Source: Ignavibacteria bacterium (GTDB lineage: Bacteria; Bacteroidota; Ignavibacteria; Tepidaquicellales; Tepidaquicellaceae). From it: a stretch of DNA of 64,000 bases. The notes beneath the pieces are model-generated. The model was not told the origin of the DNA and did not search any database. It worked only from the letters and a program-made list of their open reading frames with translations. The stretch lies in the NCBI GenBank assembly GCA_035443185.1, contig DAORRV010000001.1, forward strand, positions 42,191-106,190, given 5' to 3'. A program made the translations under genes and the position numbers. Below, in pieces: positions 6,754 through 64,000 of this stretch (its first letter is position 1; every line of letters begins with the position of its first letter).

Positions 6754-6793
6754 TATTAGAATTGGGTTCAGAATTTTATTTGATCGTTTTTGT

Positions 6794-6843
6794 AAAATAA
6801 AAAACCGGAACTACAATTAACAGAGAATTGAAATTCCGGTTTG
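6794..6843 (-). terminator. Rho-independent terminator candidate after ccmF
   Basis: Minus-strand hairpin AACCGGAA/TTCCGGTT (plus coordinates 6803-6810 and 6835-6842) followed by a T-run. The loop is long (about 24 nt), so confidence is moderate. Confidence 0.5.
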
Positions 6844-6861
6844 AATAAAAATTTTTATTAT

Positions 6862-9240: not shown

Positions 9241-9258
9241 GATGAACTTAAATTAAAT

Positions 9259-9651
9259 TTATGTACCTGTTTTTTTTACTTCATGACCTTCGCCTTCATA
9301 CTTGGAAGGACATTTAGTTAATACTTCTTTTGCATAAAAATTGCCATCCTTAACTTTACCTTTTGCTACTACAGATTCAGCCATTTCAAAATTATTTGGT
9401 CTTGATCCATCCAGTACCACTTTCATTTCTTTATTGCTTTCATCTAACATATAAAATGTGAACTGATTAGTTGCTGCATCATATTTTGCTTCCTTATCCT
9501 TTTGCCAGTAACCTTTTACCTGGCAGGTCCTGTGACTTCCGGATGCCTGATCGAAATTCGTGTACTCTATATTACTTTCTGTAAATGTCAGAAAGCCTAC
9601 TACTAAAAATACTGCTATTAATAAAACTCCGATTATTGTTTTTTTATTCAT
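9259..9651 (-). CDS. ccmE: Haem chaperone CcmE, Cys-variant (CxxxY in place of HxxxY)
   Basis: Single N-terminal TM anchor, OB-fold-sized periplasmic domain. 'AKEVLTKCPSKYE' aligns with the canonical E. coli 'AKEVLAKHDENYT', with Cys replacing the haem-binding His. Confidence 0.8.
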   Translation of the reverse strand: MNKKTIIGVLLIAVFLVVGFLTFTESNIEYTNFDQASGSHRTCQVKGYWQKDKEAKYDAATNQFTFYMLDESNKEMKVVLDGSRPNNFEMAESVVAKGKVKDGNFYAKEVLTKCPSKYEGEGHEVKKTGT

Positions 9652-16000: not shown

Positions 16001-17393
16001 CAATGACAACAGAGATGAAGTGATTGTAAATGTCGGGACTTTATTTTACATTTTGAAATTCAACACGACACTTCAAAGATTTATGCCTGATTATTACAGA
16101 GAAGGAATGAATTCATTTAATCAGATAGCATTTGATTTCGATGGTGACGGTGTAAAAGAGATCGGTGCAAATACTGTTGATGACTCCCTTATTTTCTTTG
16201 AAAAAGATATTGCTTTTACAGGACCGGCGACACCTCTGAATCTCAAAGGTCATAGTATTGATTCCAACTCAGTGGAGCTTACATTTGAACCTGTCTCCGG
16301 TGCTGAAAGATATAAGGTTTACAAAAGTGATTCGACAATGAATTTTTCTTTGTATGATTCTGTGGTTACTAATTTATTTATCGATCTGATTATTTTAAAC
16401 AGGAAAAATTATTATTATAAAATATCTTCAGTAGATGAGCAAAATTCTGTTAAAGAAAGTATGTTAACGGATCCTGTGAAAGTATATGTTCATAATAAAT
16501 CACAACTGCTTTCAGCGGAATATCAAAACGGCGGTTTTCTTGTACTAAAATATTCAGAAAGAATTCCAACGCTGATTCCAAATCTGAGTTCATTTGTGAT
16601 TTCGGGAAATTCTGCTGTACCTTTTAATCCAAAGAATATTACAGCAAAAAGTAATTATGAATATTTCCTGACAATGAACAGCATTCCTGAAAATGGAAAC
16701 TATAATGTAAAAGCTTTAGTGCTTACAGATTATTACGGCTCGCCTGTCGATACGAATACGAAAAGCTTTACAGTACTGGAAACAGATTCTATAAAATTTT
16801 ATTTATCCAAACTCGAGTTAATTGGTGAATACAGATTAACTGCTGAATTTAATATGGAAGTCGATTCTGTAAGTGGGAGGAATACATCGAATTATAAATT
16901 TCAGCCTTTGAATATTTCAGTGAGTTCTGTAACAATTGATAATGCAGACAGAAAAAAAGTTTATATTGACTTAGAGAAAAATTCAGTTATAGGTGCAACA
17001 GGAAAAAATTATATCATGAATGTAAAAAATGTATATTCATCTGGAGGTATAAAGATAGTTGACGGAGCGGGAAGCAGTCTGGGTCTTATTTTTAACAAAG
17101 AAAACCTGAATGAAATGTATGTATATCCAAATCCATACAGTGTCAGCACGGGTCAGGATTATATTACGTTTGCCAATATCACAAGAAATGCCAGTATCGA
17201 TATTTATGATCTGAAAGGAAAATTTATTTTAACAATAGCAGAAGCAGACGGCAACGGCGGAGTGGAGTGGGATTTAATGGATAGTGGTGGAAATGCAGTA
17301 CCAACCGGTATTTACATTTATGTTGCATCCGGAAAAAATTCCGACGGTCAGGATGTTGAAGAATTTACAGGTAAGTTTGCAGTAGTAAAGTAA
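13065..17393 (+). CDS. Giant S8 subtilisin-like serine peptidase with FG-GAP/VCBS-type repeats, FN3-like region and T9SS C-terminal sorting domain
   Basis: Catalytic triad motifs 'VIDTGLD', 'SHGTAVTG', 'GTSFAAPIVAG'. Repeated 'D.DGDGK.E/D' FG-GAP-like loops. C-terminus 'VYPNPYS...GIYIYVA...KFAVVK'. Signal peptide present. Confidence 0.9.
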   Translation: MNSVKILTTLFVLAILFCSHTVFSQTTVIIKFKENTPASVISNFKNNRPESGNSTVSKLSRDFGLKKSKPVFNERVLQNFDNRNLSDAISKTGLNRIFISETNNENLDLLLTAAGKNEFIEYIQFNNVLKVDDIQGPPVTPNDPYYSDQNYLNMIGMNNAWDITLGDSNIVIGVIDTGLDFLHPDLQNSFKINYGEYGNGKESNGIDDDNNGFIDDWRGWDFTDEPLTGDPRRGDYLDPDNDPTDDNSVSHGTAVTGIINAGFNNITGISSVAPGCKVMVLRAFDAEGYGEEDDVANAILYGVANGVKVFNFSFGDYVFSNLLKDVIRFAYLQNVLIICSAGNDGTDRLHYPSAYDEVVSVGASDNSNNKASFSSYGETVDIFAPGFQNLTTVRVGKGSSQYGGDYNKLNGTSFAAPIVAGISGMLLSKNPSLTNEEIRGILVSTTAMLQGQNSWDHVRSSGRVDALNALQNFNNPTISRIHTPSQDYTFENDTVTVSVSAASNLFLSYSLYYAKGQRPSEWIPLLSNQTSQVLGDTVLKWNTAGLQDTSYTLRLAINSNSGRTIEHRMIIFKDKNPPMFTDIQFGNLIDKNNFSQLILFATNKRTLGKIYYKRKGSSEPYISVLADIGTPNIGFVTNAHFGLLNGNNLAPNTEYEFYVEAISLNGKSATFSDTAFYFYTQPSINNYGFNNKNYKLGNSQFARTVTDINGNGLNDLLVNDINNNLKLNVYEFSNGNFQKISNDNWGDFKIARDIADVDGDGKLEILASSDRNGFLYEAPNQNAIPTDLVWSDQGNGNFWSSMIADTDSDGKNELLGFGNSGLRILESTSGNNFNQTANLNFYGTDSITNSQVVLVEDFDNDGKKDIMFSNIFYSPSNPGIPITCVSVYENVSDNNYQRVFIDSIYRFIKGENIVSGDFNGDGKKDFALGVTSQNSDFIQYYSLYSYTSAGDNQYELLDITDIYNYKDYTKTSTLSADIDNDNRDEVIVNVGTLFYILKFNTTLQRFMPDYYREGMNSFNQIAFDFDGDGVKEIGANTVDDSLIFFEKDIAFTGPATPLNLKGHSIDSNSVELTFEPVSGAERYKVYKSDSTMNFSLYDSVVTNLFIDLIILNRKNYYYKISSVDEQNSVKESMLTDPVKVYVHNKSQLLSAEYQNGGFLVLKYSERIPTLIPNLSSFVISGNSAVPFNPKNITAKSNYEYFLTMNSIPENGNYNVKALVLTDYYGSPVDTNTKSFTVLETDSIKFYLSKLELIGEYRLTAEFNMEVDSVSGRNTSNYKFQPLNISVSSVTIDNADRKKVYIDLEKNSVIGATGKNYIMNVKNVYSSGGIKIVDGAGSSLGLIFNKENLNEMYVYPNPYSVSTGQDYITFANITRNASIDIYDLKGKFILTIAEADGNGGVEWDLMDSGGNAVPTGIYIYVASGKNSDGQDVEEFTGKFAVVK

Positions 17394-18868: not shown

Positions 18869-20800
18869 ATGAAAACAGTTATAATTTTATTAATGCTACA
18901 AATCTCGGTATTGACATTCGGTCAGTCTGAGAAGATCGGAGATGAACTTTATCTTTACTCCGATAAAAATTCATCACAGCCAAACTGTACCGCGGAAGAA
19001 ATTAAATTTGATCCTGCAATACATGAAAACATTTCAGGACCTTTAAATATGGGAGGACCTTCATATGACTGGCCATTAAAAGCAGCACTTAATGAAGGAT
19101 TAGTTATAGTAAATTATGTAGATGATCTTGCAGGTGGCAGTATAAAGGATTATAATGACAATGACTGGTCATATAACGGTCATAACGGAACTGACATTTG
19201 TCTGCATGATTTTCGTAACATGGACAGATTTTATGCTATTAAAGCTGCTGAATCAGGAGTGGTCATACAGACAGTAATGAATAATTTTGACAGAAATACC
19301 GGATGGAGTAATGTAGATCCTGCCAATAAAATACTTATAAAACATGACGACGGGAGCTATGCATATTATTATCATCTTATGAAAAAATCAGTAACTGTAA
19401 AACTCGGTGAGTATGTACAGAAAGGAAGAATAATTGGATATGTTGGAAGTTCCGGAGTTTCTACAGATGCACACCTACATTTCGAATCAGGATATTTTGT
19501 AAATGGAACTTGGAACAAAAGAGATCCCTGGCAGGGAGATTATAATCATCTGCCTTCACAATGGGCTGATCAGGAAGCATATGTAGGAAATACAGCTTTT
19601 AAATTACACGATATGGGTGTTTTTACTTCGAGTCTGATAGGAGGAGATATGGATAATATTCCTATCTCTTATTTTAAGGAAAGAATTTTTACTCCAAATA
19701 CAGTCAGCGGATATGAAGGCAGGATTGGTTTCTGGCTGCAGCTTCAGGGAAATAATACAGGAAAGCAGATAAGATATGAAATTAGAAGATCAGATGGTTC
19801 TTTATTTGATGATACTTATTTTTACCTTAATAGTCAGGCACAATTTGCATGGTCCTGGTGGACACCGACTTTTAATGTAGGAATAGGTACAACCGGTGAC
19901 TGGTATGTAAGAGTTCTATATGACAATGTAGAAAAGGGAAGATATTTTTTTGACGTGCAGCTTCTAACATCAAACCGTCCGAGAATGTATCCTGTTGCCG
20001 CTAAATGTTTCAGGAGATCTATATTCGTTCAGAGAGATACTCTCAGAGTAAGACCTGTAAGAGCAAACATGCAGTACCAGCTGGTGAATGCACCTCCAAA
20101 TGTTTCGCTGACCAATGATTCAATCTTAACCATATCAACATTTGACCAGCCATTCAGATCATATGATTTTAAAGTTATTGGAAGTATGGGCGGAAGTGCA
20201 AGTCTACGTGATACTATGCTTTATAAACTTATAGATACAACAAAGAATCATTCATCAGGAAACGGGATTGTTTCACTTGAATTGAAATCATATTTAGAAG
20301 GGAGATATAACGGTTCTAGTATGGAAGAAGATACTATAACGGTTTTGTTAAGATCTCCATTGTCTCCATATGCACTTGTTGATTATGATAAAGTATTAAC
20401 TCTTTCAAACGGAACATGCATTGCAAACTTCCCAAATGCATCAAGCGGTATTTATTATTACATATTGATCCGCCACAGGAATTCCATCGAGACATGGGCT
20501 AAGACAGTACAGCAATTCCAGCTTGGTTATCCTTTAAGTTATAATTTTACAACTTCAAAAACAAAAGCTTACGGAGATAATCTCAAATTAAAAGGAGGTG
20601 AATATTGTATTTATTCAGGAGACGTTAATCAGGACGGAGCAGTGGATGTAACTGACGTTAGCATGGTAGATAATGATATTTCAATATTTGTTCAGGGATA
20701 TGAAGTAACTGATCTTGATGGAGATAATTTTGTTGATGCTTCTGACCAGGCAATTGCTGATAATAATTCATTTAACTTTGTAGTAAAGATCAGACCTTAG
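18869..20800 (+). CDS. Secreted M23 family metallopeptidase with a C-terminal beta-sandwich-like module plus dockerin-like Ca-loop domain
   Basis: Signal peptide. 'HNGTDI' (HxxxD) and 'GSSGVSTDAHLHFE' (HxH) M23 motifs. The C-terminus 'GDVNQDGAVDVTDVSMVDND...DLDGDNFVDASDQAIADNN' contains two EF-hand-like dockerin loops. Confidence 0.8.
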   Translation: MKTVIILLMLQISVLTFGQSEKIGDELYLYSDKNSSQPNCTAEEIKFDPAIHENISGPLNMGGPSYDWPLKAALNEGLVIVNYVDDLAGGSIKDYNDNDWSYNGHNGTDICLHDFRNMDRFYAIKAAESGVVIQTVMNNFDRNTGWSNVDPANKILIKHDDGSYAYYYHLMKKSVTVKLGEYVQKGRIIGYVGSSGVSTDAHLHFESGYFVNGTWNKRDPWQGDYNHLPSQWADQEAYVGNTAFKLHDMGVFTSSLIGGDMDNIPISYFKERIFTPNTVSGYEGRIGFWLQLQGNNTGKQIRYEIRRSDGSLFDDTYFYLNSQAQFAWSWWTPTFNVGIGTTGDWYVRVLYDNVEKGRYFFDVQLLTSNRPRMYPVAAKCFRRSIFVQRDTLRVRPVRANMQYQLVNAPPNVSLTNDSILTISTFDQPFRSYDFKVIGSMGGSASLRDTMLYKLIDTTKNHSSGNGIVSLELKSYLEGRYNGSSMEEDTITVLLRSPLSPYALVDYDKVLTLSNGTCIANFPNASSGIYYYILIRHRNSIETWAKTVQQFQLGYPLSYNFTTSKTKAYGDNLKLKGGEYCIYSGDVNQDGAVDVTDVSMVDNDISIFVQGYEVTDLDGDNFVDASDQAIADNNSFNFVVKIRP

Positions 20801-34648: not shown

Positions 34649-36862
34649 TCATTTTTTCAGAACCATACGTTTGGTTTCATGCAGCTTTCCATTGAAAGAA
34701 ATCGCATAGAAATATATTCCACTCGCATAATTACTGCCGTCAAATTTAACATCATAATTTCCTGATACCTGCATTTCATTCACTAATAATGCAAGTTCAT
34801 TACCCAAAATATCATACACTTTTATTGAAACATTATTGGTGTACCCTACTATGTAATTTATATTTGTATGCGGGTTAAATGGATTTGGATAATTTGAAAG
34901 TGATGAAATATTTTTTTTCGGAGCTGCATTTGATAAAGTGCTGAAGACTTTAACTTCAGATTCAGAATAAATAATAGTACCGTTTTCACCGAAAGCAAAT
35001 ACACCTGCACTATTACAATTCAGGGTAAGTAATTTGTTATCTGTTAATGAATTCATTTTCACCCAGCTAATTCCTGCATCTGAAGAATGAATGACCGTTC
35101 CATTCTTACCAACAGCAGTTACATTAAAACTATCAGTGAACTTTACGGAAAAAAGATCTTTATATTGGATGTGAGATATATAATCCCATTTTGCACCTCC
35201 GTCTGAAGTTCTGAAAACAGTTCCGTTTTCACCAACTATCAATCCTGATATACCTCCGTTAAAATCTATCGAGTTAAGATCATATGGAATTAAATTTTGT
35301 GTGCTCCATGTATTTCCTCCATCAGATGTAACAGTTAAATTTCCATTGTCGCCAACTACAAATCCATTTTCACGGTCAGTAAAATGTATATCCTTGAAAG
35401 TACCGATAGTAAAATTACTGAAAAGACTTTTCCATGAATCACCACTGTTAGTAGTTTTTAAAATAGTACCCGTTGAATTATATTCATTACCACCGCAGAT
35501 GAATCCATTATATTTATCTTTAAAAAAAATTTTATTCAAATGGAAATCAGGATTTTGTTTAACAAAGGTGATCACTTCTTTCCAGTTATCACCTCCGTCT
35601 GTTGTTTTGAAGATCAAGCCGTTGTAGCTGCAAACAAATCCTGTAAAATCATTTACAAAACAAACTGAGCTGAGTATTAAGTTATCTCTGATCAAAATTT
35701 TTTCCCATTCGGACTTTAAATTAGAAACAGAATTTGAGATCTTTTTTCTGAATAAAATTCCGTTATCTCCTGCACAAAATAAAGTTCCGTTATCAGTGAC
35801 ATAGCTGTTGTGGAAATTCAAGTTATTACCTGAAAGTACATTCCAGTTATTTCCTTTATCCGAAAATTTCAAAACCCTTCCTCCATTTCCACATAAAAAT
35901 AATTCAGAACTGTTTTTAAAAAATACGTTTTTAAAAATCCCTTCTTTCAGAAATCCGGATCTCTGTGAGGTATCTTTCAGCCATTGCTTTCCACCGGTTG
36001 ATGTGATGAGTACAGTACCCAAATCGGTAACGATACAGCCGTGGTTTGGGTCAGCAAAATCCATTGACCTGACAAGATCGACACTTCCACCAAAAAGGTA
36101 GGGAAGTCCGAGAGAATTTCTTTCCCAATTGTCACCTCCGTTATTTGAAATATAAAAGTCGCCTTGTGGTGAATTACCAGCAGCAAATATTTTATTGGGG
36201 GATAAATATTCAATTTCCTTGATCTGCGAAGAAAACGGAATGTCAGCTTTGAGAAATTCCCAACTGATTCCTGCATTGGTAGTCCGGATAATTTCATTGT
36301 AACCTCCGCAAATACCGGTGTCCCCGTTCAGAAAATTTACACAAAACAGAGGAATGTTGATTTGTGAATTTAAATTTACCCATGTATTGCCATGATCTTC
36401 ACTCATTAAAATTTTTCCTCCGAGTCCGCAAACATATATCTTGTTTTCTTTTATACAAATGTCGTACAGATCCAATGAGGAATAATTGCTGATCTGCTTC
36501 CAGTTGACCCCGCCGTTATTTGTAATTAGTATAAGCCCATCTTTGCAGACACAAATGCCTAAATCTAAATTCCAGAATTCCATTTTAAAAATTTCCTTTT
36601 GTGTCCCCGAATTCAGACTTATCCAGTTTATGCCTTTGTCGGTAGTTTTAATTATATTTCCCATAGAGCCGGCTGCAAATCCTGTATTGTCATTAACAAA
36701 ATAAATACTGTTAAGAGTGTTGCCTGTCGGAAGAGGATGCTGCCACTGCCATTGAGACTGCGAATAAATTTGTATTGATTGAAAAAAAATACATTGCAGC
36801 ATAATGGAAAATTTTACAGCATTAGATAACTCAAACAACTTTAAATCAAATAATTTTTTCAT
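34649..36862 (-). CDS. BNR/Asp-box repeat (Ycf48-like double beta-propeller) protein with T9SS C-terminal sorting domain
   Basis: At least 11 'S/T-x-D/N-x-G-x-x-W' Asp-boxes (TTDKGINW, TNNGGVNW, SEDHGNTW, TTNAGISW, TTDGGDNW, TSDGGNTW, TSDGGAKW and others). C-terminus 'NYPNPFNPHTNINY...GIYFYAI...KRMVLKK'. Confidence 0.75.
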   Translation of the reverse strand: MKKLFDLKLFELSNAVKFSIMLQCIFFQSIQIYSQSQWQWQHPLPTGNTLNSIYFVNDNTGFAAGSMGNIIKTTDKGINWISLNSGTQKEIFKMEFWNLDLGICVCKDGLILITNNGGVNWKQISNYSSLDLYDICIKENKIYVCGLGGKILMSEDHGNTWVNLNSQINIPLFCVNFLNGDTGICGGYNEIIRTTNAGISWEFLKADIPFSSQIKEIEYLSPNKIFAAGNSPQGDFYISNNGGDNWERNSLGLPYLFGGSVDLVRSMDFADPNHGCIVTDLGTVLITSTGGKQWLKDTSQRSGFLKEGIFKNVFFKNSSELFLCGNGGRVLKFSDKGNNWNVLSGNNLNFHNSYVTDNGTLFCAGDNGILFRKKISNSVSNLKSEWEKILIRDNLILSSVCFVNDFTGFVCSYNGLIFKTTDGGDNWKEVITFVKQNPDFHLNKIFFKDKYNGFICGGNEYNSTGTILKTTNSGDSWKSLFSNFTIGTFKDIHFTDRENGFVVGDNGNLTVTSDGGNTWSTQNLIPYDLNSIDFNGGISGLIVGENGTVFRTSDGGAKWDYISHIQYKDLFSVKFTDSFNVTAVGKNGTVIHSSDAGISWVKMNSLTDNKLLTLNCNSAGVFAFGENGTIIYSESEVKVFSTLSNAAPKKNISSLSNYPNPFNPHTNINYIVGYTNNVSIKVYDILGNELALLVNEMQVSGNYDVKFDGSNYASGIYFYAISFNGKLHETKRMVLKK

Positions 36863-39739: not shown

Positions 39740-40990
39740 TTAGTTTTTTACAAAAATCTTTTGATTTTTAAATATTGATTTTTTTTCAAGCTCTTTTCTT
39801 TTATCAAATGCCAATCCCGGCCAATTTACAAGAATAAGCTGTGCAGCATTTCTGTCAGCGATTGCAAGATCGTCTATGTCAACAATAATATCACCGTTCA
39901 GATTTGTAACTGCATTTCCTAATGTATAATTGAACAGGTCATTATCAATCATAACAAGATCATCAGAATCAATTATCTGATCGTTATTCACATTCCCGCT
40001 GTAAATACAGCCCCGGCTTCCTTTCAATACCATGTTGCTGCCATAAGCCTGCGAAACTGAGGAAGTGAAGTCATAGAAATTATTTCCTTCTGCCAGTGTT
40101 ACTCCGCCGGATTTACTCCAGGTCTCAAGACCGTTTTTTGTTTTTACGACTATATAATAATTGGAGAACAAAGAAATGTTTTGAAAATCGAAGTTACCTG
40201 TTAGGTTAACTGAATCTATTATTGCAGATGCAGAATCTACAACTTGATAAGGAGAAGTGCTTTTTCTTAAATAAACAGTGGCAGTTTCTTTTTTAAAAAG
40301 TTTATCGTTTGAAACATTGTATAATCCTTCAATCGAAATTTTCAAATTAAGGTTTACATTTACAAAAACCGGATTCATATTTATAAAATGGTTTGAACAT
40401 CGTGTCATTTCTTTATTTAAACAGCCATTTGCGTCATACCAGTTGATCTTTGTTCTTGTTGCTGATAATGGTGATTCACAACTGTCTCTAAAAATAATAG
40501 GATTAGTATCAAGAGCTGATAAATTAATTGGAGTTGATGATTTTAAATTATATCTGCCGATCAGGATTGGGACACCTTGCTGCATGATTAAACCACCTCC
40601 GCATCCGGGTAATGAATTAGCAGCAGCTCTGAATTCATAATTCCCTGGAGAGTTTGAAGCAATTATTGTATTTGTATTCCTAGGTCTGAAACTTTCCGGT
40701 AGGTCTGAAACTGGAACACCGTTTGCAGTGTCAAGCATGAAAGATGAAGCCGATCCGAAACCAGCATAAAAAGTCCCAAGTGATTGAGGTCCTCTAAGAA
40801 AAAATGTCCATCCTGCTAATTGCATTACCGTGGCATCGGTATGAGTAAAAACCAGATCAAATTTTAACAGATAAGGAGAAACCAGATTAAAGTTTTTTGC
40901 TTCAAGAGTGTATTGCGGAATCTGAGCTGATGACTCATTTATAATTATCAACTGTGAAATTAATATTAAAATAAAAATTATCTTTTTCAT
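39740..40990 (-). CDS. Secreted paralog A1 (type A, 416 aa): unknown N-domain + beta-sandwich-like module + dockerin-like domain + basic tail
   Basis: Signal peptide. 'PQYTLEAKNF...QLAGWTFF...VSDLPESFRPRN...NSPGNYEFRAAANSLPGCG'. 'IEGLYN...LRKSTSPYQVVDS...YYIVVKTKNGLETWS'. 'GNVNNDQIIDSDD...NLNGDIIVDIDDLAIADRN'. 'WPG' followed by a K/R-rich tail. Confidence 0.85.
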   Translation of the reverse strand: MKKIIFILILISQLIIINESSAQIPQYTLEAKNFNLVSPYLLKFDLVFTHTDATVMQLAGWTFFLRGPQSLGTFYAGFGSASSFMLDTANGVPVSDLPESFRPRNTNTIIASNSPGNYEFRAAANSLPGCGGGLIMQQGVPILIGRYNLKSSTPINLSALDTNPIIFRDSCESPLSATRTKINWYDANGCLNKEMTRCSNHFINMNPVFVNVNLNLKISIEGLYNVSNDKLFKKETATVYLRKSTSPYQVVDSASAIIDSVNLTGNFDFQNISLFSNYYIVVKTKNGLETWSKSGGVTLAEGNNFYDFTSSVSQAYGSNMVLKGSRGCIYSGNVNNDQIIDSDDLVMIDNDLFNYTLGNAVTNLNGDIIVDIDDLAIADRNAAQLILVNWPGLAFDKRKELEKKSIFKNQKIFVKN

Positions 40991-41036: not shown

Positions 41037-42140
41037 TTAAGGTGTTATTACACCTGCAAACAGAAACACATTATTATCAGCTATAGCAAGATCATCAAGG
41101 TCAACAAATCTGTCACCATTCAGATCTGTAATAACATCTCCGCTTAAGAAATTTGTGCCGTCATTATATACTCTTGACATATCTGAAATATCTACAAATC
41201 CGGAGTTATCAATATCCCCGCTGTATAAACAATATTTGCTTCCTTTTAAAACCAAATTATTACCATACGCTTTTGAAGAGGCAACTGTGAAATCATAATT
41301 TAAAGTATTTCCGATTACTATATTCTCTCCGCCGGATCTGCTCCAGGTCTCGAGTGAATTTATATACTTCATCACAAGATAATACGATCCACCTTGAATA
41401 AAACGAAAAGTAAAATTACTTAACAATGTATTTGAGTCTAAAATAGAAATTGATGAATCTATAATCTGATAAGGGGAAACTGATTTTCTCAAAAACAATT
41501 TAATTGAATCTCTTTTAAGATGTTTATTCTGAATTGGTCTGTATAAGCCTTCTATAGCAACTTTGATTTCAAGTGAAGTTTGAATTCCGGATGTGTCAAT
41601 AAGGTAAGAAGCTCCCGAAGTTACATTCGTATTTACTGTTCCTACATAAGCGTAAATTTTCGTAAACGGATCCGGTGACTGTGTTCTCCATGCAAAGTTT
41701 AACGGAACATTCGCGAAAGATCCGGCAGTTGTCTGAATTTTCATTTTTGCAATCTTCGTTCCCGGACTTCCGTTGTTTGTCATAATAAAACCATTCCCCG
41801 CGCTTGGGAAAATATTTGCAGCAAGTCTTAGCTGACTTCCTGATACCTGAGGATTTCGCGGCCGCATATTGACAGGGAGATCAGAACTGTCAGAAGAATA
41901 TGTATAAGATAATGTTCCGCCATTTGCAATATCAGTATTAACATTAAAAAAATATTGTCCTCCGGAATATTCAAATACAGTCGGTGAATTTGTATGCTCC
42001 AATCGAATCTCAAATTCTAAAACATTCGGTGATGTAAATACAAAATTCAATGATTTAAGATTAAATGTTGGAGTTTGAGAAAACATAATTCCCGGCGAAA
42101 ACAGAATAATTATTATTATTGATTTGAAAAAATTTATCAT
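41037..42140 (-). CDS. Secreted paralog B1 (type B, 367 aa): related N-domain + beta-sandwich-like module + dockerin-like domain
   Basis: Signal peptide. 'FEYSGGQYFFNVN..IANGGTLSYTY...RPRNPQVSGSQLRLAAN'. 'IEGLYRP...LRKSVSPYQIIDS...YYLVMKYINSLETWS'. 'GDIDNSGFVDISD...DLNGDRFVDLDDLAIADNN'. Its ATG overlaps the A2 stop (ATGA). Confidence 0.85.
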   Translation of the reverse strand: MINFFKSIIIIILFSPGIMFSQTPTFNLKSLNFVFTSPNVLEFEIRLEHTNSPTVFEYSGGQYFFNVNTDIANGGTLSYTYSSDSSDLPVNMRPRNPQVSGSQLRLAANIFPSAGNGFIMTNNGSPGTKIAKMKIQTTAGSFANVPLNFAWRTQSPDPFTKIYAYVGTVNTNVTSGASYLIDTSGIQTSLEIKVAIEGLYRPIQNKHLKRDSIKLFLRKSVSPYQIIDSSISILDSNTLLSNFTFRFIQGGSYYLVMKYINSLETWSRSGGENIVIGNTLNYDFTVASSKAYGNNLVLKGSKYCLYSGDIDNSGFVDISDMSRVYNDGTNFLSGDVITDLNGDRFVDLDDLAIADNNVFLFAGVITP

Positions 42141-43372
42141 TTGAAATCTCCTGTAAATGTTTTGCTTTTTAATGAAATGTTTCTTTTATTTGTTGTCTGT
42201 CCCGGCCATTCTACTAAGATCAACTGTCCGGCATTCCTGTTTACAATTGCCATATCATCTATATCAACTATATTATCTCCGTTTAGATTTGTGATACTAT
42301 TTCCCAAGACATAATTATAAACGTCATTATCAATCATACTCAGATCATCAGTATCAATTATCTGATCGTTATTCACATTCCCGCTGTAAATACAATACCG
42401 GCTTCCGTTCAGTACCATATTATTACCAAATGCCTGAGATGCTGAAGTCGTGAAGTTGTAGGAGTTACCGCCGACTATTAATAATTCACCGCCCGACTTA
42501 CTCCATGTTTCTATAGTATTTCTGCTTTTTACCGCGATATAGTAATTTCCATTCAGATGATTCTCAAATATGAAATTTGCTGTTAAATTAACGGAATCAA
42601 TAAACGCTACTGAAGAATCTAATATCTGATAAGGTGTATTTACGCTTCGCAGAAAAGCTGTAACAGATTCCTTTCTGTTTAATGTATTATTTATTGGATT
42701 ATAAAGTCCTTCATTTGCCATAATTATATTAAGACTTATATTATTTTCCAATCCAGATAGATCTACTGAATGACTTGCGCATCTGGTCATTTCAACTCCT
42801 AGACAATGACTTAATATGTATGGATTTATCTTTGTTCTTGTAACTGAAAGAGGAGTATCACAACTGTCTCTAAAAGTAAAAGAGTTTTCATTTAAAACAC
42901 TAATGTCTATTATGGATGTAGATTTTAATTTATATCTGCCAATTAATGTAGGTACATTGACTGGTATAGATAATCCGTTTCCACATCCGGGGAGAGAGTT
43001 TGCAGCAATTCTGAATTCATAATTACCAGGTGAGTTTGAAGCAATCACAGTATTAGGATTTCTAGGTCTGAAAGATTCAGGTATATCTGAAACAGGAATT
43101 CCATTTATTGTGTCTAAAACAAAAGAAGAACTTGTTCCAAATCCGGGAAGAAAATTGCCTAAAGTCTGAGGTGCTTTTAAAAAAAACTGCCAGCCAGCTA
43201 ATTGCCATTGAATAAAATCCAAATTGGTAAAAACCAGATCAAACTTTAAAGTATGGGCATTTGTAAGTTCGAAATTTTTTGCTTCAAGTGTATATTGTGG
43301 CAATTGTGCATTAGAACTATTAGTTAAAACAAGCATACAAAATATTGAGAATAGAAGTAAATTTTTTTTCAT
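42137..43372 (-). CDS. Secreted paralog A2 (type A, 411 aa)
   Basis: Collinear with A1 and A3 along its full length. Shares a 42-nt identical DNA run with A1 (42353-42394 = 39968-40009). Confidence 0.85.
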   Translation of the reverse strand: MKKNLLLFSIFCMLVLTNSSNAQLPQYTLEAKNFELTNAHTLKFDLVFTNLDFIQWQLAGWQFFLKAPQTLGNFLPGFGTSSSFVLDTINGIPVSDIPESFRPRNPNTVIASNSPGNYEFRIAANSLPGCGNGLSIPVNVPTLIGRYKLKSTSIIDISVLNENSFTFRDSCDTPLSVTRTKINPYILSHCLGVEMTRCASHSVDLSGLENNISLNIIMANEGLYNPINNTLNRKESVTAFLRSVNTPYQILDSSVAFIDSVNLTANFIFENHLNGNYYIAVKSRNTIETWSKSGGELLIVGGNSYNFTTSASQAFGNNMVLNGSRYCIYSGNVNNDQIIDTDDLSMIDNDVYNYVLGNSITNLNGDNIVDIDDMAIVNRNAGQLILVEWPGQTTNKRNISLKSKTFTGDFK

Positions 43373-43403: not shown

Positions 43404-44513
43404 TCAATCTCCATAAATCGGATTTCTAATTAATTTATTTCTATTATTATCAATGATAGACATATCTCTTCCCTCTACAACAAAATCACCATTAAAATCA
43501 GTTGGTCTAAATCCAGATGCATAAGTAAAAACATCATTATCTACATCACTTAAATCAGAAATATCAATTATATAATCCTGATTGACATCACCACTATAGA
43601 TACAATATAATGTTCCTCTAAGTGCTAAATTATTTCCATATGCTTTTGAAGCTGATGTTGTAAAATCATAATTATAAATATTACCATTCATCACCGTTTC
43701 ACCACCTGCTTTACTCCAAGTCTCAAGAGAATTATAATGTTTTACAACAAGATAGTAAGTTCCGTTGACAGCGTTTCTATATGTGAAGGTTGCACTTAAA
43801 GATAGTGAATCAATTATGTTTGTTGCTGAATCAACATAGTTATAAGGTGCAACTGATTTTGCAAGATATACCGTTACAGTATCTCTTCTATTATGAACGT
43901 GGAAGGCAGTTTTCAATAATCCGTCAATTGCTACTTTTAAATTGAAAGTTAAAATTATTCCAGATGAATCAATCGAGTGAACAGCATTTGAAGTTATGTT
44001 AGTATTAGTATTACCAACATATGCGTATATTTTTGTATAAGGATCAGGAAGATTATTTCTCCATTCAAAACTCAAGGGTGCATTAGTAAGAGATGGTGCA
44101 GTAGTAGTTAATTTCATACTGACAATTCTTGTACCGGGATTTCCGTTGTTAGTCATTATAAAGCCATTACCAGCTCCTGGAAACAAATTGCTTGCAAGTC
44201 TGAGTTGATTTCCGGATATCTGAGGATTTCTGGGTCTCATATGCTGAGGAAGTTCAGAAGTATCTCCGGCATAAGTATAAGATAATGTTCCTCCGTTCGC
44301 AATGAGTGGATTGAAATTAAAAAAGTACTGACCACCGGAATATTCAAAAGTTGTAGGCGCATTTGTATGTTCAATGAAAATATCAAACTGCAATACATTT
44401 GGAGCCGGATGTGAAAAATTTTTTGCTGTTAAATTATACAATGGTGCTTGTGAAAAAGAAACTACAGGTAATATTAAATACAAAAAAATAAATAATTTGG
44501 ATAAAATGTTCAT
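43404..44513 (-). CDS. Secreted paralog B2 (type B, 369 aa)
   Basis: Collinear with B1. Its ATG overlaps the A3 stop (ATGA at 44510-44513). Confidence 0.85.
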   Translation of the reverse strand: MNILSKLFIFLYLILPVVSFSQAPLYNLTAKNFSHPAPNVLQFDIFIEHTNAPTTFEYSGGQYFFNFNPLIANGGTLSYTYAGDTSELPQHMRPRNPQISGNQLRLASNLFPGAGNGFIMTNNGNPGTRIVSMKLTTTAPSLTNAPLSFEWRNNLPDPYTKIYAYVGNTNTNITSNAVHSIDSSGIILTFNLKVAIDGLLKTAFHVHNRRDTVTVYLAKSVAPYNYVDSATNIIDSLSLSATFTYRNAVNGTYYLVVKHYNSLETWSKAGGETVMNGNIYNYDFTTSASKAYGNNLALRGTLYCIYSGDVNQDYIIDISDLSDVDNDVFTYASGFRPTDFNGDFVVEGRDMSIIDNNRNKLIRNPIYGD

Positions 44514-45745
44514 TTGGTTCTCCTTGCAATTGTTTTATTATTTAATAATTTTTTTCTTTTTTGAAATGTCTGACCCGGCCATTTAACTAATACAAAGTTA
44601 CCGGCATTCTTATCAACAATTGCAAGATCATCAATATCTACAATATCGTCACCGTTAATATTAGTCAGCGAATTTCCTCCTGCATAATTATACAAATCGT
44701 TATCAAGCATTGTAAGATCATCTGTGTCTATAATATTGTCGTAGTTAAAATTCCCGCTGTATATACAATACTTGTCACCAACTAAAACCAGATTATTTCC
44801 ATAAGCTTTAGAAGCTGATATTGTAAAGTCGTAAAAATTTGTACCATTTTGAAAGTTTGTTCCGCTCTGTTCACTCCACGTTTCCAGACCATTTTTATTT
44901 TTTACTGATATGTAATATGTACCTGCTGGTCTGTTGTAAAATATATAATTCCCTGACAAAGTAGATGAATCAATTAATCCCTTTGAGGAATCTATTATTT
45001 GATAAGGTGAATTCACATTTCTTAAATAAGCAGTAACAGAATCTTTTCTGTTTAATCTATTAAAAACAGGATTATATAAACCTTCAATTGACAATTTTAA
45101 ATTTATCTGTATAAAAGGAAACACTCCTGAAATATCAACATTATGATTTGCACATCGCGTCATCTCTTTATTCAAACAATTATTTGCATCATACCAATTG
45201 ATCTTTGTTCTGGTTACCGATAGTGGCGATTCGCAACTGTCTCTGAATATTATTGGATTATTTAACAATACGTTTGGATTTATTATTGTGGAAGCTTTCA
45301 TGTTATATCTACCTATTAAAATAGGAATGTCTTTAGGAATTATTAACCCATTTCCGCAGCCTGGAAGAGAATTTGCAGCTAATCTGAATTCATAATTTCC
45401 AGGAGAATTTGCAGCGACAACTACATTTGATCCTCTTGGTCTAAAAGATTCAGGAAGGTCTGAAACCGGCACCCCGTTACTTGTATCAAGCATATATGCA
45501 GATGCTGATCCAAATCCCGCAGAAAAAACTGCTAACGTCTGGGGAACTCTGAAAAAGAACTGCCACCCCGCTAATTGTAAAGGTGTATCATCAGTTTTTG
45601 TAAATATTAGATCAAACTTCATTGTGTATTCGTCAGAAAGCACATAATTTTTTGCTTCCAGAGTATATTGCGGAATCTGTGATTTAAGCTGATTTGCAAA
45701 ACTAAGCAAAAAAAATAATGAGAAAAGTGGTATAATTTTTTTCAT
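44510..45745 (-). CDS. Secreted paralog A3 (type A, 411 aa), first gene of the array
   Basis: Collinear with A1 and A2. Signal peptide. The same four type-A-specific Cys residues. The same 'WPGQ' + basic tail. Confidence 0.85.
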   Translation of the reverse strand: MKKIIPLFSLFFLLSFANQLKSQIPQYTLEAKNYVLSDEYTMKFDLIFTKTDDTPLQLAGWQFFFRVPQTLAVFSAGFGSASAYMLDTSNGVPVSDLPESFRPRGSNVVVAANSPGNYEFRLAANSLPGCGNGLIIPKDIPILIGRYNMKASTIINPNVLLNNPIIFRDSCESPLSVTRTKINWYDANNCLNKEMTRCANHNVDISGVFPFIQINLKLSIEGLYNPVFNRLNRKDSVTAYLRNVNSPYQIIDSSKGLIDSSTLSGNYIFYNRPAGTYYISVKNKNGLETWSEQSGTNFQNGTNFYDFTISASKAYGNNLVLVGDKYCIYSGNFNYDNIIDTDDLTMLDNDLYNYAGGNSLTNINGDDIVDIDDLAIVDKNAGNFVLVKWPGQTFQKRKKLLNNKTIARRTK

Positions 45746-56833: not shown

Positions 56834-58663
56834 ATGAATTTTCTAAAAACTTTCTTAAAACCCTCAACTGTACTTTTAATACTTATTGTTTTATTTCTAT
56901 TTGCAAAAGGTTCATTTGCTCAGAACTTTGTAAAAGTAACTGATCCAAACAATCCCGTAGTGACTGAAGCTCTCAGCGGAAATTACTTCGGCACAAGCTG
57001 GGTGGATATAGACAATGACAGATTACTGGATCTTTTCATAAATAGAAAAGTGATCTTTAGAAATCTGGGTAACGGTAATTTTGTAAAAATCGAAACTGCT
57101 ATGGCAAATCAAAATACAAATATAGGAAACTCATGGTCAGATTATAACAATGACGGATTGCTCGACTGCTTTGTAACTTCAACAGGCGGACCTTTCTCCT
57201 ATTTATTTAAAAATGAGGGGAACGGTGTGATCAATAAAGTTCAGGCAGGAGACATCAGTGACTCACTAAACAACACCGGCTGGGGCTGCGCATGGGCTGA
57301 TTATAATAATGACGGATTTACTGATCTATTTATAGCTGCTGCAAACGGTTTCGGAAATGTATTTCATCCAAACAGATTTTTTAAAAATAACGGAGACGGC
57401 AGTTTTACAAAACTTGAAGTAGCCGGACTTACAGATACTCTCGCACCTTTTACAATTCCTATCTGGTCAGATTATGATCAGGACGGTGATATGGATCTCT
57501 TCATCGGAAGTGGTCCGGGCGGATCGACTTCTACAGATTTTTTATATAAAAATATGCTGACTGAAACAGGTACATCTGATCTTGTAAGATTAATGACTTC
57601 GCCGATGGCAACTGACCAACTCGATGGTCAGGTCTGGAACTGGATAGATTACGATAACGACGGTGACCTCGATGGATTCATAACTAACTATGCAAACAAT
57701 GTTCCGAATAATCTCTACAGAAATAATAATGGTGTTTATGAAAAAATGCTGGCTGCACAGGTTGGAAATATTGTATCTGATATTGGTTATTATCTTGCAA
57801 ATGTCTGGGGAGACTTTGATAACGACGGTGACCTCGATTGTTTTTTAACGCGTGACGTAGGTCAGCAGAGCCGGTATTATAATAATAACGGGAACGGTAC
57901 TTTTACAAGAATGGATTCTCTTCAGGTGGTAACTCTTTCAGGAGGTAATTACGGAGCAACATCAGGTGATTATGATAATAACGGAACACTTGATCTCTTC
58001 GTGACCGGCAGTACAAATTCAAAAGGCCTTTTTAAAAATGAACTGAGTAACGGAAATAAATGGGTAAACATTAAATGTATAGGATCAGGTCCGTCTAATA
58101 ATTTATCCAATGCTGCAGCGATAGGAACGAGAGTTAAAGCAAAAGCAACCATTAACGGAATTGAAGTCTGGCAGCAGAGAGAAGTCTCGGCGCAGAATTC
58201 TTTTAATTCAATGAATATGCTAAACGTCCATATGGGTTTTGGAAATGCAGCAATAATAGATTCATTGATCATAATCTGGCCAAGAGGACTGAAAGAAGTA
58301 TATACTAAAGTCGGACTCGATGAATTTTATAATGCTGCTGAAGGACAGGGAATTGTCTCCGGAATTGTCTTAGAATCTCAGATACTTCCTGAAGGATTTT
58401 TACTTGAACAGAATTATCCTAATCCGTTTAACCCGTCAACTAAAATAAAATTTTCAATACCTTCAGAAAATAAAAATTTATTGTTCACTCTGAAGATCTT
58501 TGACATACTTGGTAAAGAAGTACAGACACTGTTTACAAAAAAAATATCTCCGGGAAGTTATTCTTATGAATTCAACGGGAATGGTCTGAGCAGCGGTGTA
58601 TATTTTTATAGACTGACTTCAATCGGATTTTCTCAGACCAGGAAAATGGTACTTGCAAAATAA
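56834..58663 (+). CDS. FG-GAP/VCBS repeat + ASPIC/UnbV domain (CRTAC1-like) protein with T9SS C-terminal sorting domain
   Basis: Signal peptide. Repeated 'W.DYDNDGDLD.F' loops. An ASPIC/UnbV-like region ('NKWVNIKCIG...AIGTRVKA...QQREVSAQNSFNSMN...HMGFG'). C-terminus 'NYPNPFNPSTKIKFSIP...GVYFYRL...RKMVLAK'. AAGGAG lies upstream of the ATG. Confidence 0.8.
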   Translation: MNFLKTFLKPSTVLLILIVLFLFAKGSFAQNFVKVTDPNNPVVTEALSGNYFGTSWVDIDNDRLLDLFINRKVIFRNLGNGNFVKIETAMANQNTNIGNSWSDYNNDGLLDCFVTSTGGPFSYLFKNEGNGVINKVQAGDISDSLNNTGWGCAWADYNNDGFTDLFIAAANGFGNVFHPNRFFKNNGDGSFTKLEVAGLTDTLAPFTIPIWSDYDQDGDMDLFIGSGPGGSTSTDFLYKNMLTETGTSDLVRLMTSPMATDQLDGQVWNWIDYDNDGDLDGFITNYANNVPNNLYRNNNGVYEKMLAAQVGNIVSDIGYYLANVWGDFDNDGDLDCFLTRDVGQQSRYYNNNGNGTFTRMDSLQVVTLSGGNYGATSGDYDNNGTLDLFVTGSTNSKGLFKNELSNGNKWVNIKCIGSGPSNNLSNAAAIGTRVKAKATINGIEVWQQREVSAQNSFNSMNMLNVHMGFGNAAIIDSLIIIWPRGLKEVYTKVGLDEFYNAAEGQGIVSGIVLESQILPEGFLLEQNYPNPFNPSTKIKFSIPSENKNLLFTLKIFDILGKEVQTLFTKKISPGSYSYEFNGNGLSSGVYFYRLTSIGFSQTRKMVLAK

Positions 58664-61834: not shown

Positions 61835-64000
61835 ATGAAAAATCTGTTTTCAACTTCGATGGTGTTTTTTACATTAATCAGCAATTTGTTTTTATCAGGA
61901 AATGCTGATGCACAGATGTTCTGGAATAAAGCATCTGAATTTATTGCTTCAGATTCATCTCACGTTGCAGTTCCAGACAGTCCGTCACTGGACCTAACCG
62001 GAAATTTCACTTTAGAATGCTGGGTAAATCCTGATAGTTCAGTACATCCGTTCAGTCAGATACTTATTCAGAAAAGAACTCCTTCTACAAGCTCAACAGG
62101 ATATGCTTTATATCTGCAACAGGGAAAGGTGACTATTACGATAAATAATAATATCGGTCTGATCGGAAAAACTGTGATTCAAAATAATAAATGGACTCAT
62201 ATAGCAGGAAGATTTATAGTAGCTACCGGTACATTTTCAGTTTATATAAATGGCGTACTGGATACTTCAGTCGCTAAACCCGGAAATACTCCGGCAGTAA
62301 ATAATGATTCAGTGATAACCGGTATTGGCAGAGGAATAGGCGGAATATTCTCCGGAAAGATAGATAATATCAGGATCTGGAACAGAGGACTAACTGCTGC
62401 AGAAATTTTTATGTATCGTTATACTACTCTTGGAGTAAATACGGGAATATATAACGGACTGGTATTGTCACTTCCATTTCAAAAAGAAGAATCTACATCT
62501 CCGGTATTTTCTGTAAATGATTATTCAGGAGCGGGCAATAATGGCTTTGCAAGAAATCTGACTTCGTTTGATATGAGTAATGAACTTTCACAAATTGTTA
62601 CATACAATGAAAGTGCAGAGTTTGACGGAAACGATGACTATTTATCAGCATCATCAAATACGGCATTGTCACCTGTTCAATCAGTTACTTTAGAAGCTTG
62701 GATTTATCCCAAATCTGTTTCCAACTCTGTAATTATACATAAAGGATCTGATAACGGAGCAGTGACAAATTTCAGATTAGGAATTGAGAATAGAAAACTT
62801 TATGCAGGCATAAAACAGAATTTTAATTTTATTTCAAATGATACTATTGGTGTTAATAAATGGAGTCATGTTGCATTTACATATTCAGGAATTACAGGTA
62901 AGTACTGTTTTTATCTGAATGGAAAAATGATTATAGATAGTACTAACATCATTGGTCTGATCTCAAGCTCTTCAGATTCACTTTATATTGGCGGTTCGGT
63001 TTCACTTCCGGATTTTAATGGCTTCATAGACGAGGTAAGAATTACCGAAGATGAAAAAACAAATTCTGAAATTACAGAAAACATTTTCAGATCAGTGGAT
63101 AAATCCAATGAAAGTATTTATGATGATGTTGTATATAATCTCGACGGACTTAATCTTTCCAATACCGGACAGGGAACTAAACTTAACTTCAGAAACAACG
63201 CTGCATTTTCTCATCCAGCTGCCAATACTTTGAAACCTGTTTCACCATGTCTCAGATCAGGTGCAAATTATTTTCAGGGGTCATTTAATTTAAGTAAGAC
63301 TGATCTCAGGATTCCGTTTTCTGGAGACGCCGGAATATCTGAAGATGAAATTGAAATTTATGAAAATATACCGATCACTGACGTTAATGTTTTTGTAGCA
63401 ATGAACCATGAAAATATGAATAATATCAGAATATTATTAACTGCACCAAATAATCAGTATGCTTTGCTTTATAATGAAAGTTATAACGCAGGAGTTGATG
63501 AAAATCTCATAACTGTATTTGATGATCAGGGAGCTCTGCCTAATTCAAATACTTACACATCTTTTTCTCCTTCCATTCAGGGAAATGTAAATTTAAATTC
63601 CGCATTTACCGGGAATACAAAAGGCACATGGAAGCTCACGATATTTGATGACACAGGTACTGACACGGGCAGGCTTTATTGCTGGGGGATCAGGTTCAAT
63701 AATAAAACTGCTTCAGAAAATATTCTTGAAACAAGTTTACATATAGAAGGATTTTATAATGAAGCTGCAAATAATACAATTAGAGATACAATTACATATA
63801 ATCTTAGAAAATTTAATTCACCTTATAATATTATTGAATCCAAAAAATTCTATCTTCCTTTGAATAATCTGTCATATGTAAGTTTCAATAATGTTGTTGA
63901 AGCTGCACCTTATTATATTGAAGCTGTCCACAGAAATTCGATTGGAGTATGGAGTGCATCTGATGTTACATTCAGTCCATTTTCACATCTTGCGACTCAT
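61835..64000 (+). CDS. Secreted protein, 3'-truncated by the window edge: 2 x LamG (Laminin_G_3) + proprotein-convertase P-domain + beta-sandwich-like module (not in the supplied ORF track)
   Basis: I translated it manually from the ATG at 61835: 722 codons with no stop up to nt 64000. Signal peptide 'MKNLFSTSMVFFTLISNLFLSGNADA'. LamG patterns 'LTGNFTLECWVNP...NKWTHIAG...YINGVLD...FSGKIDNIRIWNRGLTAAEI' and 'VTLEAWIYPK...NKWSHVAFTY...YLNGKMI...FNGFIDEVRI'. P-domain 'ITDVNVFVAMNHENMNNIRILLTAPNNQYALL...GTWKLTIFDDTGTDTGRLYCWGIRF'. Confidence 0.75.
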   Translation, partial: MKNLFSTSMVFFTLISNLFLSGNADAQMFWNKASEFIASDSSHVAVPDSPSLDLTGNFTLECWVNPDSSVHPFSQILIQKRTPSTSSTGYALYLQQGKVTITINNNIGLIGKTVIQNNKWTHIAGRFIVATGTFSVYINGVLDTSVAKPGNTPAVNNDSVITGIGRGIGGIFSGKIDNIRIWNRGLTAAEIFMYRYTTLGVNTGIYNGLVLSLPFQKEESTSPVFSVNDYSGAGNNGFARNLTSFDMSNELSQIVTYNESAEFDGNDDYLSASSNTALSPVQSVTLEAWIYPKSVSNSVIIHKGSDNGAVTNFRLGIENRKLYAGIKQNFNFISNDTIGVNKWSHVAFTYSGITGKYCFYLNGKMIIDSTNIIGLISSSSDSLYIGGSVSLPDFNGFIDEVRITEDEKTNSEITENIFRSVDKSNESIYDDVVYNLDGLNLSNTGQGTKLNFRNNAAFSHPAANTLKPVSPCLRSGANYFQGSFNLSKTDLRIPFSGDAGISEDEIEIYENIPITDVNVFVAMNHENMNNIRILLTAPNNQYALLYNESYNAGVDENLITVFDDQGALPNSNTYTSFSPSIQGNVNLNSAFTGNTKGTWKLTIFDDTGTDTGRLYCWGIRFNNKTASENILETSLHIEGFYNEAANNTIRDTITYNLRKFNSPYNIIESKKFYLPLNNLSYVSFNNVVEAAPYYIEAVHRNSIGVWSASDVTFSPFSHLATH

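Follow-up and report, generated by a model that had tools for sequence, protein, structure and literature searches.

A dockerin-like C-terminal cassette alternates with the type IX secretion C-terminal domain in an uncultured Ignavibacteria genome

Introduction

Why should exported proteins with unrelated N-terminal domains (heads) end in one and the same module, and what might that module do? The question is raised by a stretch of 64,000 nucleotides from Ignavibacteria bacterium (GenBank assembly GCA_035443185.1, contig DAORRV010000001.1, positions 42,191 to 106,190; C1:42191-106190 in our numbering), here called the window and counted from its first letter; the genome comprises 3.59 Mb on 174 contigs and is 93.5% complete. 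An M23 peptidase encoded in the window ends in a module, the cassette, that recurs at the C-terminus of six other window proteins. A reading made from the sequence alone had set the cassette beside the C-terminal domain (CTD) of type IX secretion systems (T9SS), and had suggested either a second anchoring or sorting route or a docking tag for a common receptor. We find that the cassette is widespread in the genome, that it alternates with the T9SS CTD on related heads and that, by architecture and predicted fold, it is an X module-dockerin (XDoc) dyad, with the dockerin recognizable by motif.

A shared cassette on unrelated heads

The M23 peptidase (18869..20800, plus strand; 643 amino acids [aa]) consists of a signal peptide, an M23 domain (Pfam Peptidase_M23 at residues 121-207, E 5.7e-16) and the C-terminal cassette. 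Its tail (residues ~471-643) aligns without large gaps, at 35-42% identity, with the tails of five small paralogs of two types (A and B) and of a LamG/P-domain protein, and nine columns are invariant across the seven copies (including G9, P31, Y32, Y61, Y62, N69 and W74); this likeness is far beyond chance. The heads in front of it are unrelated, as the sequence-only reading had supposed. The LamG/P-domain protein has two Laminin_G_3 matches and P_proprotein in Pfam, and no Pfam family matched the heads of the A/B paralogs. Within the window the LamG/P-domain gene occupies 61835..64000 (plus strand), with a cassette that starts at 63728 and continues past the window end; the full protein on contig C1 has 861 aa, with the complete cassette at 682-861. 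The M23 protein is found identically in 15 metagenome contigs, and its cassette is kept in the orthologs (638-646 aa) of many Ignavibacteria metagenome-assembled genomes (MAGs).

A hidden Markov model (HMM) was built from the seven window copies and run on all stop-to-stop open reading frames (ORFs) of the genome. The cassette is present in 88 ORFs, with matches reaching E 1e-40 to 1e-88 (a separate genome search gives 90 matches), so that the portable module first noticed in the window is a genome-wide family. Each of the 88 ORFs carries a single copy, which in 66 of them ends exactly at the stop codon. The heads include M23, CHRD, S8 subtilases, endonuclease I with fn3, GSDH, arylsulfotransferase, propellers of the BNR/YCF48/sortilin type, beta-helix and LamG, and several heads are without a Pfam family.

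In about 20 of the 88 ORFs the cassette is followed by 16-96 aa of low-complexity sequence, led by (P)PGA and either Lys/Glu/Asn-rich or basic. Such tails are found on the A-type paralogs of the window (39743-39811, 42140-42196 and 44513-44569, e.g., WPGQTFQKRKKLL) and also on contigs C85, C49, C32 and C77. We considered whether these extensions are hidden CTDs and rejected this on their PPGA-led, K/E/N-rich composition.

Alternation with the T9SS C-terminal domain

The CTDs present in the window served as seeds for an iterated T9SS CTD profile. A search of the whole genome with it recovers 237 ORFs, i.e., some 9% of the ~2700 genes (at least 150 match PF18962 by itself); none of the 88 cassette ORFs is among the 237. 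The two tails are exchanged on paralogous heads. For 47 of 85 cassette heads there is a CTD-bearing paralog in the same genome (E < 1e-10). Identity across the entire head is as high as 71%, and certain pairs are neighbouring genes (e.g., C34_6990 vs C34_10004, C82_12178 vs C82_14577). This module swapping is the strongest support for a cassette used in parallel with the CTD. In BLAST, the alignments of such head paralogs do not stop with the head, and for a further 50-75 aa the two unlike tails seem collinear. The idea that the X module is a diverged T9SS CTD was nevertheless rejected by profile-profile comparison: the hhalign probability is 0.7%, and only a 12-column 'G.YY' hairpin is common to the two. 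By a crude measure, N-termini resembling signal peptides occur in 83% of the cassette set and 84% of the CTD set, compared with ~36% of other ORFs; lipoboxes are rare, with 1 among the 88 cassette ORFs.

The mutual exclusivity proposed from the window is thus strong but not absolute, holding throughout this genome (0 of 88 against 237 CTD ORFs) and failing in a small minority of public homologs, 6 of 265 (2%), in which the cassette is followed by a linker of ~25-40 aa and then a clear CTD. Cassette and CTD are therefore not intrinsically incompatible. The six proteins are P0001, P0028, P0049, P0079, P0096 and P0142, and P0001 has two tandem cassettes before its CTD.

Three window proteins had been read as carrying the canonical CTD, and for two of them this is upheld by scores above the Pfam gathering threshold. 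The BNR protein at 34649-36862 has a type A CTD at 34673..34891 (minus strand; Por_Secre_tail E 2.3e-8, independent E-value 1.2e-29 with our own CTD HMM), and the FG-GAP protein at 56834-58663 has one at 58415..58651 (plus strand; Por_Secre_tail E 1.4e-9). The third, an S8 protease of 1442 aa with FG-GAP repeats (13065-17393), ends in a divergent CTD (17121..17390, plus strand) that stays below threshold (Por_Secre_tail 19.1 bits against a cut-off of 27; FlgD_ig E 1.8e-4), with YPNPY...GIYIY...KFAVVK as its very C-terminal motifs. This domain is closer to FlgD_ig, and the iterated CTD HMM lost it in spite of its having served as a seed.

Predicted fold and dockerin character

In the M23 peptidase, the alignment of copies places an X-module-like beta-sandwich at residues ~471-579 (20279..20605, plus strand), followed up to the stop codon by a dockerin-like module with two segments of Ca loop plus helix (20606..20797, plus strand). 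Two Ca-binding loops can be predicted from their residues, DVNQDGAVDVTD at 20621..20656 and DLDGDNFVDASD at 20711..20746 (both plus strand). The cassette thereby has the segment structure of a dockerin, i.e., two tandem segments of ~22 residues, each with a 12-residue EF-hand-like loop and a helix.

An AlphaFold2 model of the A-type paralog at 44513-45745 was built from a 43-row alignment drawn from this genome (predicted local distance difference test [pLDDT] 88.8, predicted template-modelling score 0.69). It has a beta-sandwich head (~25-195), a second all-beta sandwich (~211-328) and two helices flanked by Asp/Asn loops, the helices following the loops at 341-353 and 371-383. The best Foldseek matches of the model in the PDB are CohI9-X-DocII structures of Clostridium thermocellum CipA (4fl4_C and 3kcp_A; E 2e-8, ~385 columns), in which all three domains are collinear with those of the model. 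The XDoc dyads 2b59_B, 4u3s_B, 4wi0_B and 5g5d_B match this predicted structure over 178-188 columns, with template-modelling (TM) scores of 0.55-0.65 (target) and a probability of 1.0.

At the sequence level the dockerin is recognizable, if weakly. Pfam Dockerin_1 scores 24.9 bits on the M23 cassette alone and 21.6 bits on the whole protein, the cut-off being 22.9; it matches only 19 of the 88 genomic copies at E <= 0.01, and 8 of these 19 reach the cut-off. A profile search of PDB sequences with the cassette returns the dockerin part only, at weak scores (5lxv_B, E 0.035; 2vn6_B). The sandwich belongs to no Pfam or NCBIfam family, apart from weak Pfam matches to CBM- or Ig-like families (Y_Y_Y, SdrD_B). 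To the question of whether the module is a known domain the answer is thus divided: it is absent as a family from Pfam and NCBIfam, and at the level of fold it corresponds to the X module of type II/III dockerins, although its sequence does not place the sandwich in the clostridial X-module family, and the profile search of PDB sequences gave no homology to ruminococcal X modules either.

Sandwich and loops belong together throughout the genome, in agreement with the association noted in the window: both parts are present in 86 ORFs, the exceptions being two contig-end fragments and one divergent copy. All 19 Dockerin_1 matches of the genome fall within cassette ORFs, and there is thus no dockerin without the sandwich. 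In a consensus of 85 copies, the most conserved parts are the Ca loops (YSGDVNQDGxIDxxD and TDxNGDxxVDxxD, with a conserved DxNxDGxxDxxD pattern) and two helix motifs (IDNDAFNF and ADNNAfNFV). Such conservation behind unrelated heads is what one would expect were every copy directed at the same partner. Of the readings offered for the window, the docking tag for a common receptor is therefore the best supported, by the predicted XDoc fold and by helix faces conserved over 85 copies.

A candidate receptor

If the cassette docks, the A/B head is the best candidate for its receptor, moderately cohesin-like and this by predicted fold only. The five paralogs stand in tandem on the minus strand of the window. 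The A-type protein at 44513..45745 (411 aa) has a signal peptide, the head modelled as cohesin-like and a cassette at 44513-45103; it is followed by B-type (43407..44513, 369 aa, cassette 43407-43943), A-type (42140..43372, 411 aa, cassette 42140-42730), B-type (41040..42140, 367 aa, cassette 41040-41570) and A-type (39743..40990, 416 aa, cassette 39743-40348 including a basic tail) proteins, each again with head and cassette. Each of the two B-type genes overlaps the A-type gene upstream of it by 4 nt (43404-44513/44510-45745; 41037-42140/42137-43372), which suggests translational coupling of A-B pairs.

Across the genome the head family numbers 13-14 ORFs, of which seven carry the cassette and four a T9SS CTD (285-796 aa), while contig ends truncate two more. 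Conserved orthologs of the 285-aa head + CTD protein occur in Ignavibacteria MAGs, with no annotation beyond 'T9SS type A sorting domain-containing protein'. Cassette genes are neighbours of 10 out of the 13 head genes, and of 3 out of the 4 with head + CTD, compared with ~6% expected from gene frequencies, and a cluster of a 960-aa XDoc protein, a 571-aa XDoc protein and a ~310-aa head protein recurs in other genomes, including one of another genus. In a set of 31 relatives, the genomes with the head family (7-23 copies) are precisely those eight in which the cassette is expanded to 79 to >111 copies. These eight belong to the genus of our genome and two other genera of the family, and in this comparison, which is uncorrected for phylogeny, they do not amount to eight independent events.

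Canonical cohesins take the place of the A/B head in two genomes of the same class (G318 and G083), in Coh-CTD proteins of 273-275 and 409 aa and in Coh-cassette proteins of 427-472 aa with the divergent cassette. The A/B heads have the same settings as these cohesins, namely CTD-bearing anchors, XDoc-bearing adaptors and adjoining dockerin genes. The head may be a cohesin that has diverged strongly, or else an analogous sandwich filling the slot of one. In the two genomes, small canonical-cohesin proteins with a CTD or a divergent cassette form tandem arrays (L045, G318:C110:11000-18000; L046, G083:C12:255500-265354), and the dockerin repeats of G083 have an unusual '...VKYSGSSNDRS...' form. 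Pfam cohesins, absent from our genome, are common in the phylum: of 301 Bacteroidota genomes in a sample, 90 have them, frequently with several domains in one ORF of 1000-4000 aa. They are far commoner than the cellulosome literature suggests.

The seven head-borne cassettes form one exclusive clade among the 85, with low support (0.29). The clade may point to a specificity class of its own, comparable to type I/type II hierarchies, and could simply reflect duplication of whole genes.

Distribution beyond the genome

A profile search of 1.84 billion representative proteins returned 6930 clusters with the cassette at E <= 1e-3 and 1579 at E <= 1e-30, with the module C-terminal in almost all of them. 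Named sources are MAGs labelled 'Ignavibacteria bacterium', 'Bacteroidetes bacterium' and 'Bacteroidota bacterium', and the heads of public homologs also include SBBP, FG-GAP, GH13, GH31, M4, M14, CE4 and amidase_2. Of the 301 sampled genomes of the phylum, 19 have a cassette match, and the full-length cassette is found in three families of the class. In other classes it takes a divergent form (DWVLVELR ... GNYYIVVRHRNHLxVMS ... YDFT with two dockerin loops), likewise at the extreme C-terminus, with no CTD after it. Contig C47 of our genome encodes a protein of this Bacteroidota-wide type (6175-9264, plus strand, 1030 aa; DWVYVELR...GMYYVVVGHRNHLPVMS... with degenerate dockerin loops), and both cassette subtypes therefore coexist in this genome.

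Docking and its alternatives

We consider it probable that the cassette is an XDoc dyad serving as a non-covalent docking tag. It would consist of an Ig-like beta-sandwich of ~110 aa and a dockerin of ~66 aa in which each of two EF-hand-like Ca2+ loops leads into a helix, and ~88 Sec-exported non-lipoproteins would carry it at the extreme C-terminus in place of the T9SS CTD. Its partner would be the ~185-aa beta-sandwich of the A/B head. Joined to a T9SS CTD (285-800 aa), the head may be exported and fixed to the surface by the T9SS as an anchor; joined to XDoc, as in the five tandem paralogs of the window, it may act as an adaptor that binds cargo and itself docks. The T9SS translocon SprA is present in the genome, and head + CTD anchors can thus reach the surface. 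We infer that head and cassette bind each other, that Ca2+ is required for this, and that the complexes lie at the cell surface.

Several observations weigh against docking onto this receptor. Pfam Cohesin has its best match in the genome at E 0.31, outside the A/B heads; hhalign of the heads against two canonical cohesin alignments of the same class gives 0.2% and 18% (positive control 98%); and a profile search of PDB sequences with the head returns no match. We accordingly rejected the head as a cohesin at the sequence level, leaving fold and genomic context in its support. The fold similarity is itself moderate, with TM scores of only 0.42-0.47 (probability 0.97-1.0) between the A-type model and the type II cohesins 3fnk, 3ghp, 2b59_A, 1qzn and 2bm3. 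A second model, of a B-type head + CTD protein (pLDDT 84), has generic Ig-tandem matches and no cohesin among its top 50. The A/B heads and their CTD-bearing relatives are plausible as the cohesin-like receptors proposed from the window. On the side of the cassette, a relation to clostridial X modules is not detectable by PDB profile search. The head family is absent from the 23 of 31 relatives that have 0-12 cassettes, and in those with 1-12 the partner must be something else. Finally, neither GspD nor any other secretin is detectable in the 93.5%-complete genome, leaving no evident outer-membrane route for cassette proteins without a CTD; a periplasmic location, natural for an M23 peptidase, is possible.

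Several ways for cassette proteins to cross the outer membrane were considered. Export by the type II secretion system (T2SS) was rejected with the missing GspD and secretin, and surface export as lipoproteins with the single lipobox among 88 ORFs; type I secretion is unlikely given that 83% of the N-termini are of Sec type. The possibilities are residence in the periplasm, another route, or co-export with a CTD-bearing carrier. In the last case, cassette proteins would be loaded in the periplasm through XDoc onto head + CTD carriers, pass folded through SprA together with them and arrive already docked. We give such hitch-hiking on the T9SS only a slim chance; were it true, the dockerin would be a secretion tag acting in trans, and one family of CTD-bearing carriers would serve ~90 cargo proteins.

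The lack of a secretin or T2SS, which leaves some route to be supplied, also speaks for reading the cassette itself as a C-terminal sorting or export signal, one that addresses a second outer-membrane route or forms an unrecognized class of T9SS signal read by the translocon. Its strictly C-terminal position, shared by the divergent Bacteroidota versions, its exclusivity with the CTD in this genome and the occurrence of either tail on the same head families fit such a signal. Dockerins are generally C-terminal, however, which explains the position, and the cassette has no similarity to the T9SS CTD (0 of 88 by HMM, 0.7% by hhalign). The six of 265 homologs in which a normal CTD follows the cassette, one with tandem cassettes, would be odd for a terminal signal, and in about 20 of 88 ORFs the cassette is followed by 16-96 aa. 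The second sorting route raised by the sequence-only reading accordingly finds no support in the hhalign comparison or in the homologs with both tails, and we regard a sorting signal as quite unlikely. A periplasmic scaffold, on which the dockerin would assemble M23 and other hydrolases that never leave the cell, takes up the same facts from the other side, i.e., signal peptides without a known outer-membrane export tag, no secretin, and M23 peptidases that usually act on the cell's own peptidoglycan. The heads argue otherwise: 47 of 85 have close paralogs among T9SS cargo, pointing to extracellular or surface enzymes, they include endonuclease I, S8 and M4 proteases, GH13, GH31 and LamG, and the candidate receptors bear T9SS CTDs. 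We find this explanation improbable.

The cassette may also bind a non-protein ligand, such as the cell's own lipopolysaccharide or exopolysaccharide, peptidoglycan or a substrate polymer, and as a Ca2+-stabilized binder hold enzymes on the envelope or on food particles with no cohesin-like partner involved. Weak matches of the sandwich to Y_Y_Y and SdrD_B, genomes with 1-12 cassettes that lack the A/B head family, and a head that is no cohesin by sequence are all consistent with this. The best structural matches, however, are XDoc dyads rather than carbohydrate-binding modules, the dockerin helices are the most conserved surface, the cassette is tightly coupled to the head family in genomic position and phyletic distribution, and sister lineages have it either fused to canonical cohesins or next to them. 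A ligand of this kind is, in our view, unlikely, and docking onto a protein receptor remains the reading that we favour.

Implications

XDoc is a tag missed by Pfam/NCBIfam annotation that marks ~3% of genes in a diderm Ignavibacteria lineage of activated sludge, with 79 to >111 copies per genome in three genera. Instead of cellulases, its cargo comprises peptidases and nucleases, a peptidoglycan hydrolase and many proteins of unknown function. If the docking explanation is true, the exoproteome of these bacteria would be split between covalent anchoring by the T9SS and reversible docking onto T9SS-anchored receptors, and would form a modular 'degradosome' at the surface that acts on proteinaceous and nucleic-acid necromass. 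Unannotated protein tails of several thousand clusters now have a name and an HMM, and the receptor candidate is testable. A sharp question is also raised, namely how proteins without a CTD exit a cell in which a T9SS is present and a T2SS is not.

Comparison with known systems

Assembly through cohesins and dockerins is textbook knowledge for the cellulosomes of Gram-positive bacteria. The clostridial type II XDoc (CipA X-DocII with the SdbA, OlpB and ScaC cohesins, 2B59, 3KCP, 4FL4 and 5G5D; Acetivibrio cellulolyticus ScaA, 4U3S and 4WI0) has the same C-terminal arrangement of a sandwich followed by a two-loop dockerin, and the collinear Coh-X-Doc order of the A/B paralogs is that of CipA CohI9-X-DocII. 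Unlike the clostridial system, there is no sequence similarity to its X module, and ~80 enzymes bear the dyad here rather than only scaffoldins. The host is a diderm in which anchoring by S-layer homology domains or sortase signals would be replaced by T9SS CTDs. Its cargo is non-cellulolytic, and the candidate receptor is not recognizable as a cohesin by sequence. The type III XDoc of Ruminococcus flavefaciens (ScaB, CttA) binds the ScaE cohesin and fixes proteins, including a non-scaffoldin adhesin, to the cell wall. It differs from the present system in its Gram-positive, sortase-anchored setting and its few copies per genome, and was compared only through the general PDB search. Cohesins and dockerins outside cellulosomes are also reported (Peer et al. 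2009, cited in PMC8542988).

The T9SS type A CTD (PF18962/TIGR04183) resembles the cassette in being a C-terminal addition to the same kinds of exported proteins, interchangeable with it on paralogous heads. It differs as an Ig-like export and sorting signal of ~80 aa that is cleaved by PorU, whereas the cassette has roughly double that length, with a dockerin as its last part.

Closest in setting is the Cloacimonadota 'Candidatus (Ca.) Stygibacter', for which C-terminal dockerins on peptidases and glycosidases, together with a cohesin protein bearing a T9SS-type CTD for surface attachment, have been proposed on bioinformatic grounds (PMC8542988). Like our organism, it is a diderm of the Fibrobacteres-Chlorobi-Bacteroidetes (FCB) group, with C-terminal dockerins and a CTD-bearing protein proposed as surface receptor; its cohesins and dockerins, however, are recognizable by Pfam, it has one giant scaffoldin of tandem cohesins, and no X module was reported (PMC8542988). 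The present system differs in its single-head putative anchors and adaptors, in an X module that is obligatory and in a copy number of 80 to >110 per genome. Dockerins have been noted at low frequency in Bacteroidetes from rumen data (PMC6487960), the Melioribacter genome paper describes cellulases without dockerins, and our literature search found no published cohesin-dockerin system in Ignavibacteria. Compared with all of these, what is new here is a receptor domain, still a candidate, that is unrecognizable by sequence, a non-cellulolytic cargo, an obligatory X module on enzyme-borne dockerins, an expansion to ~3% of genes and a systematic alternation with T9SS CTDs.

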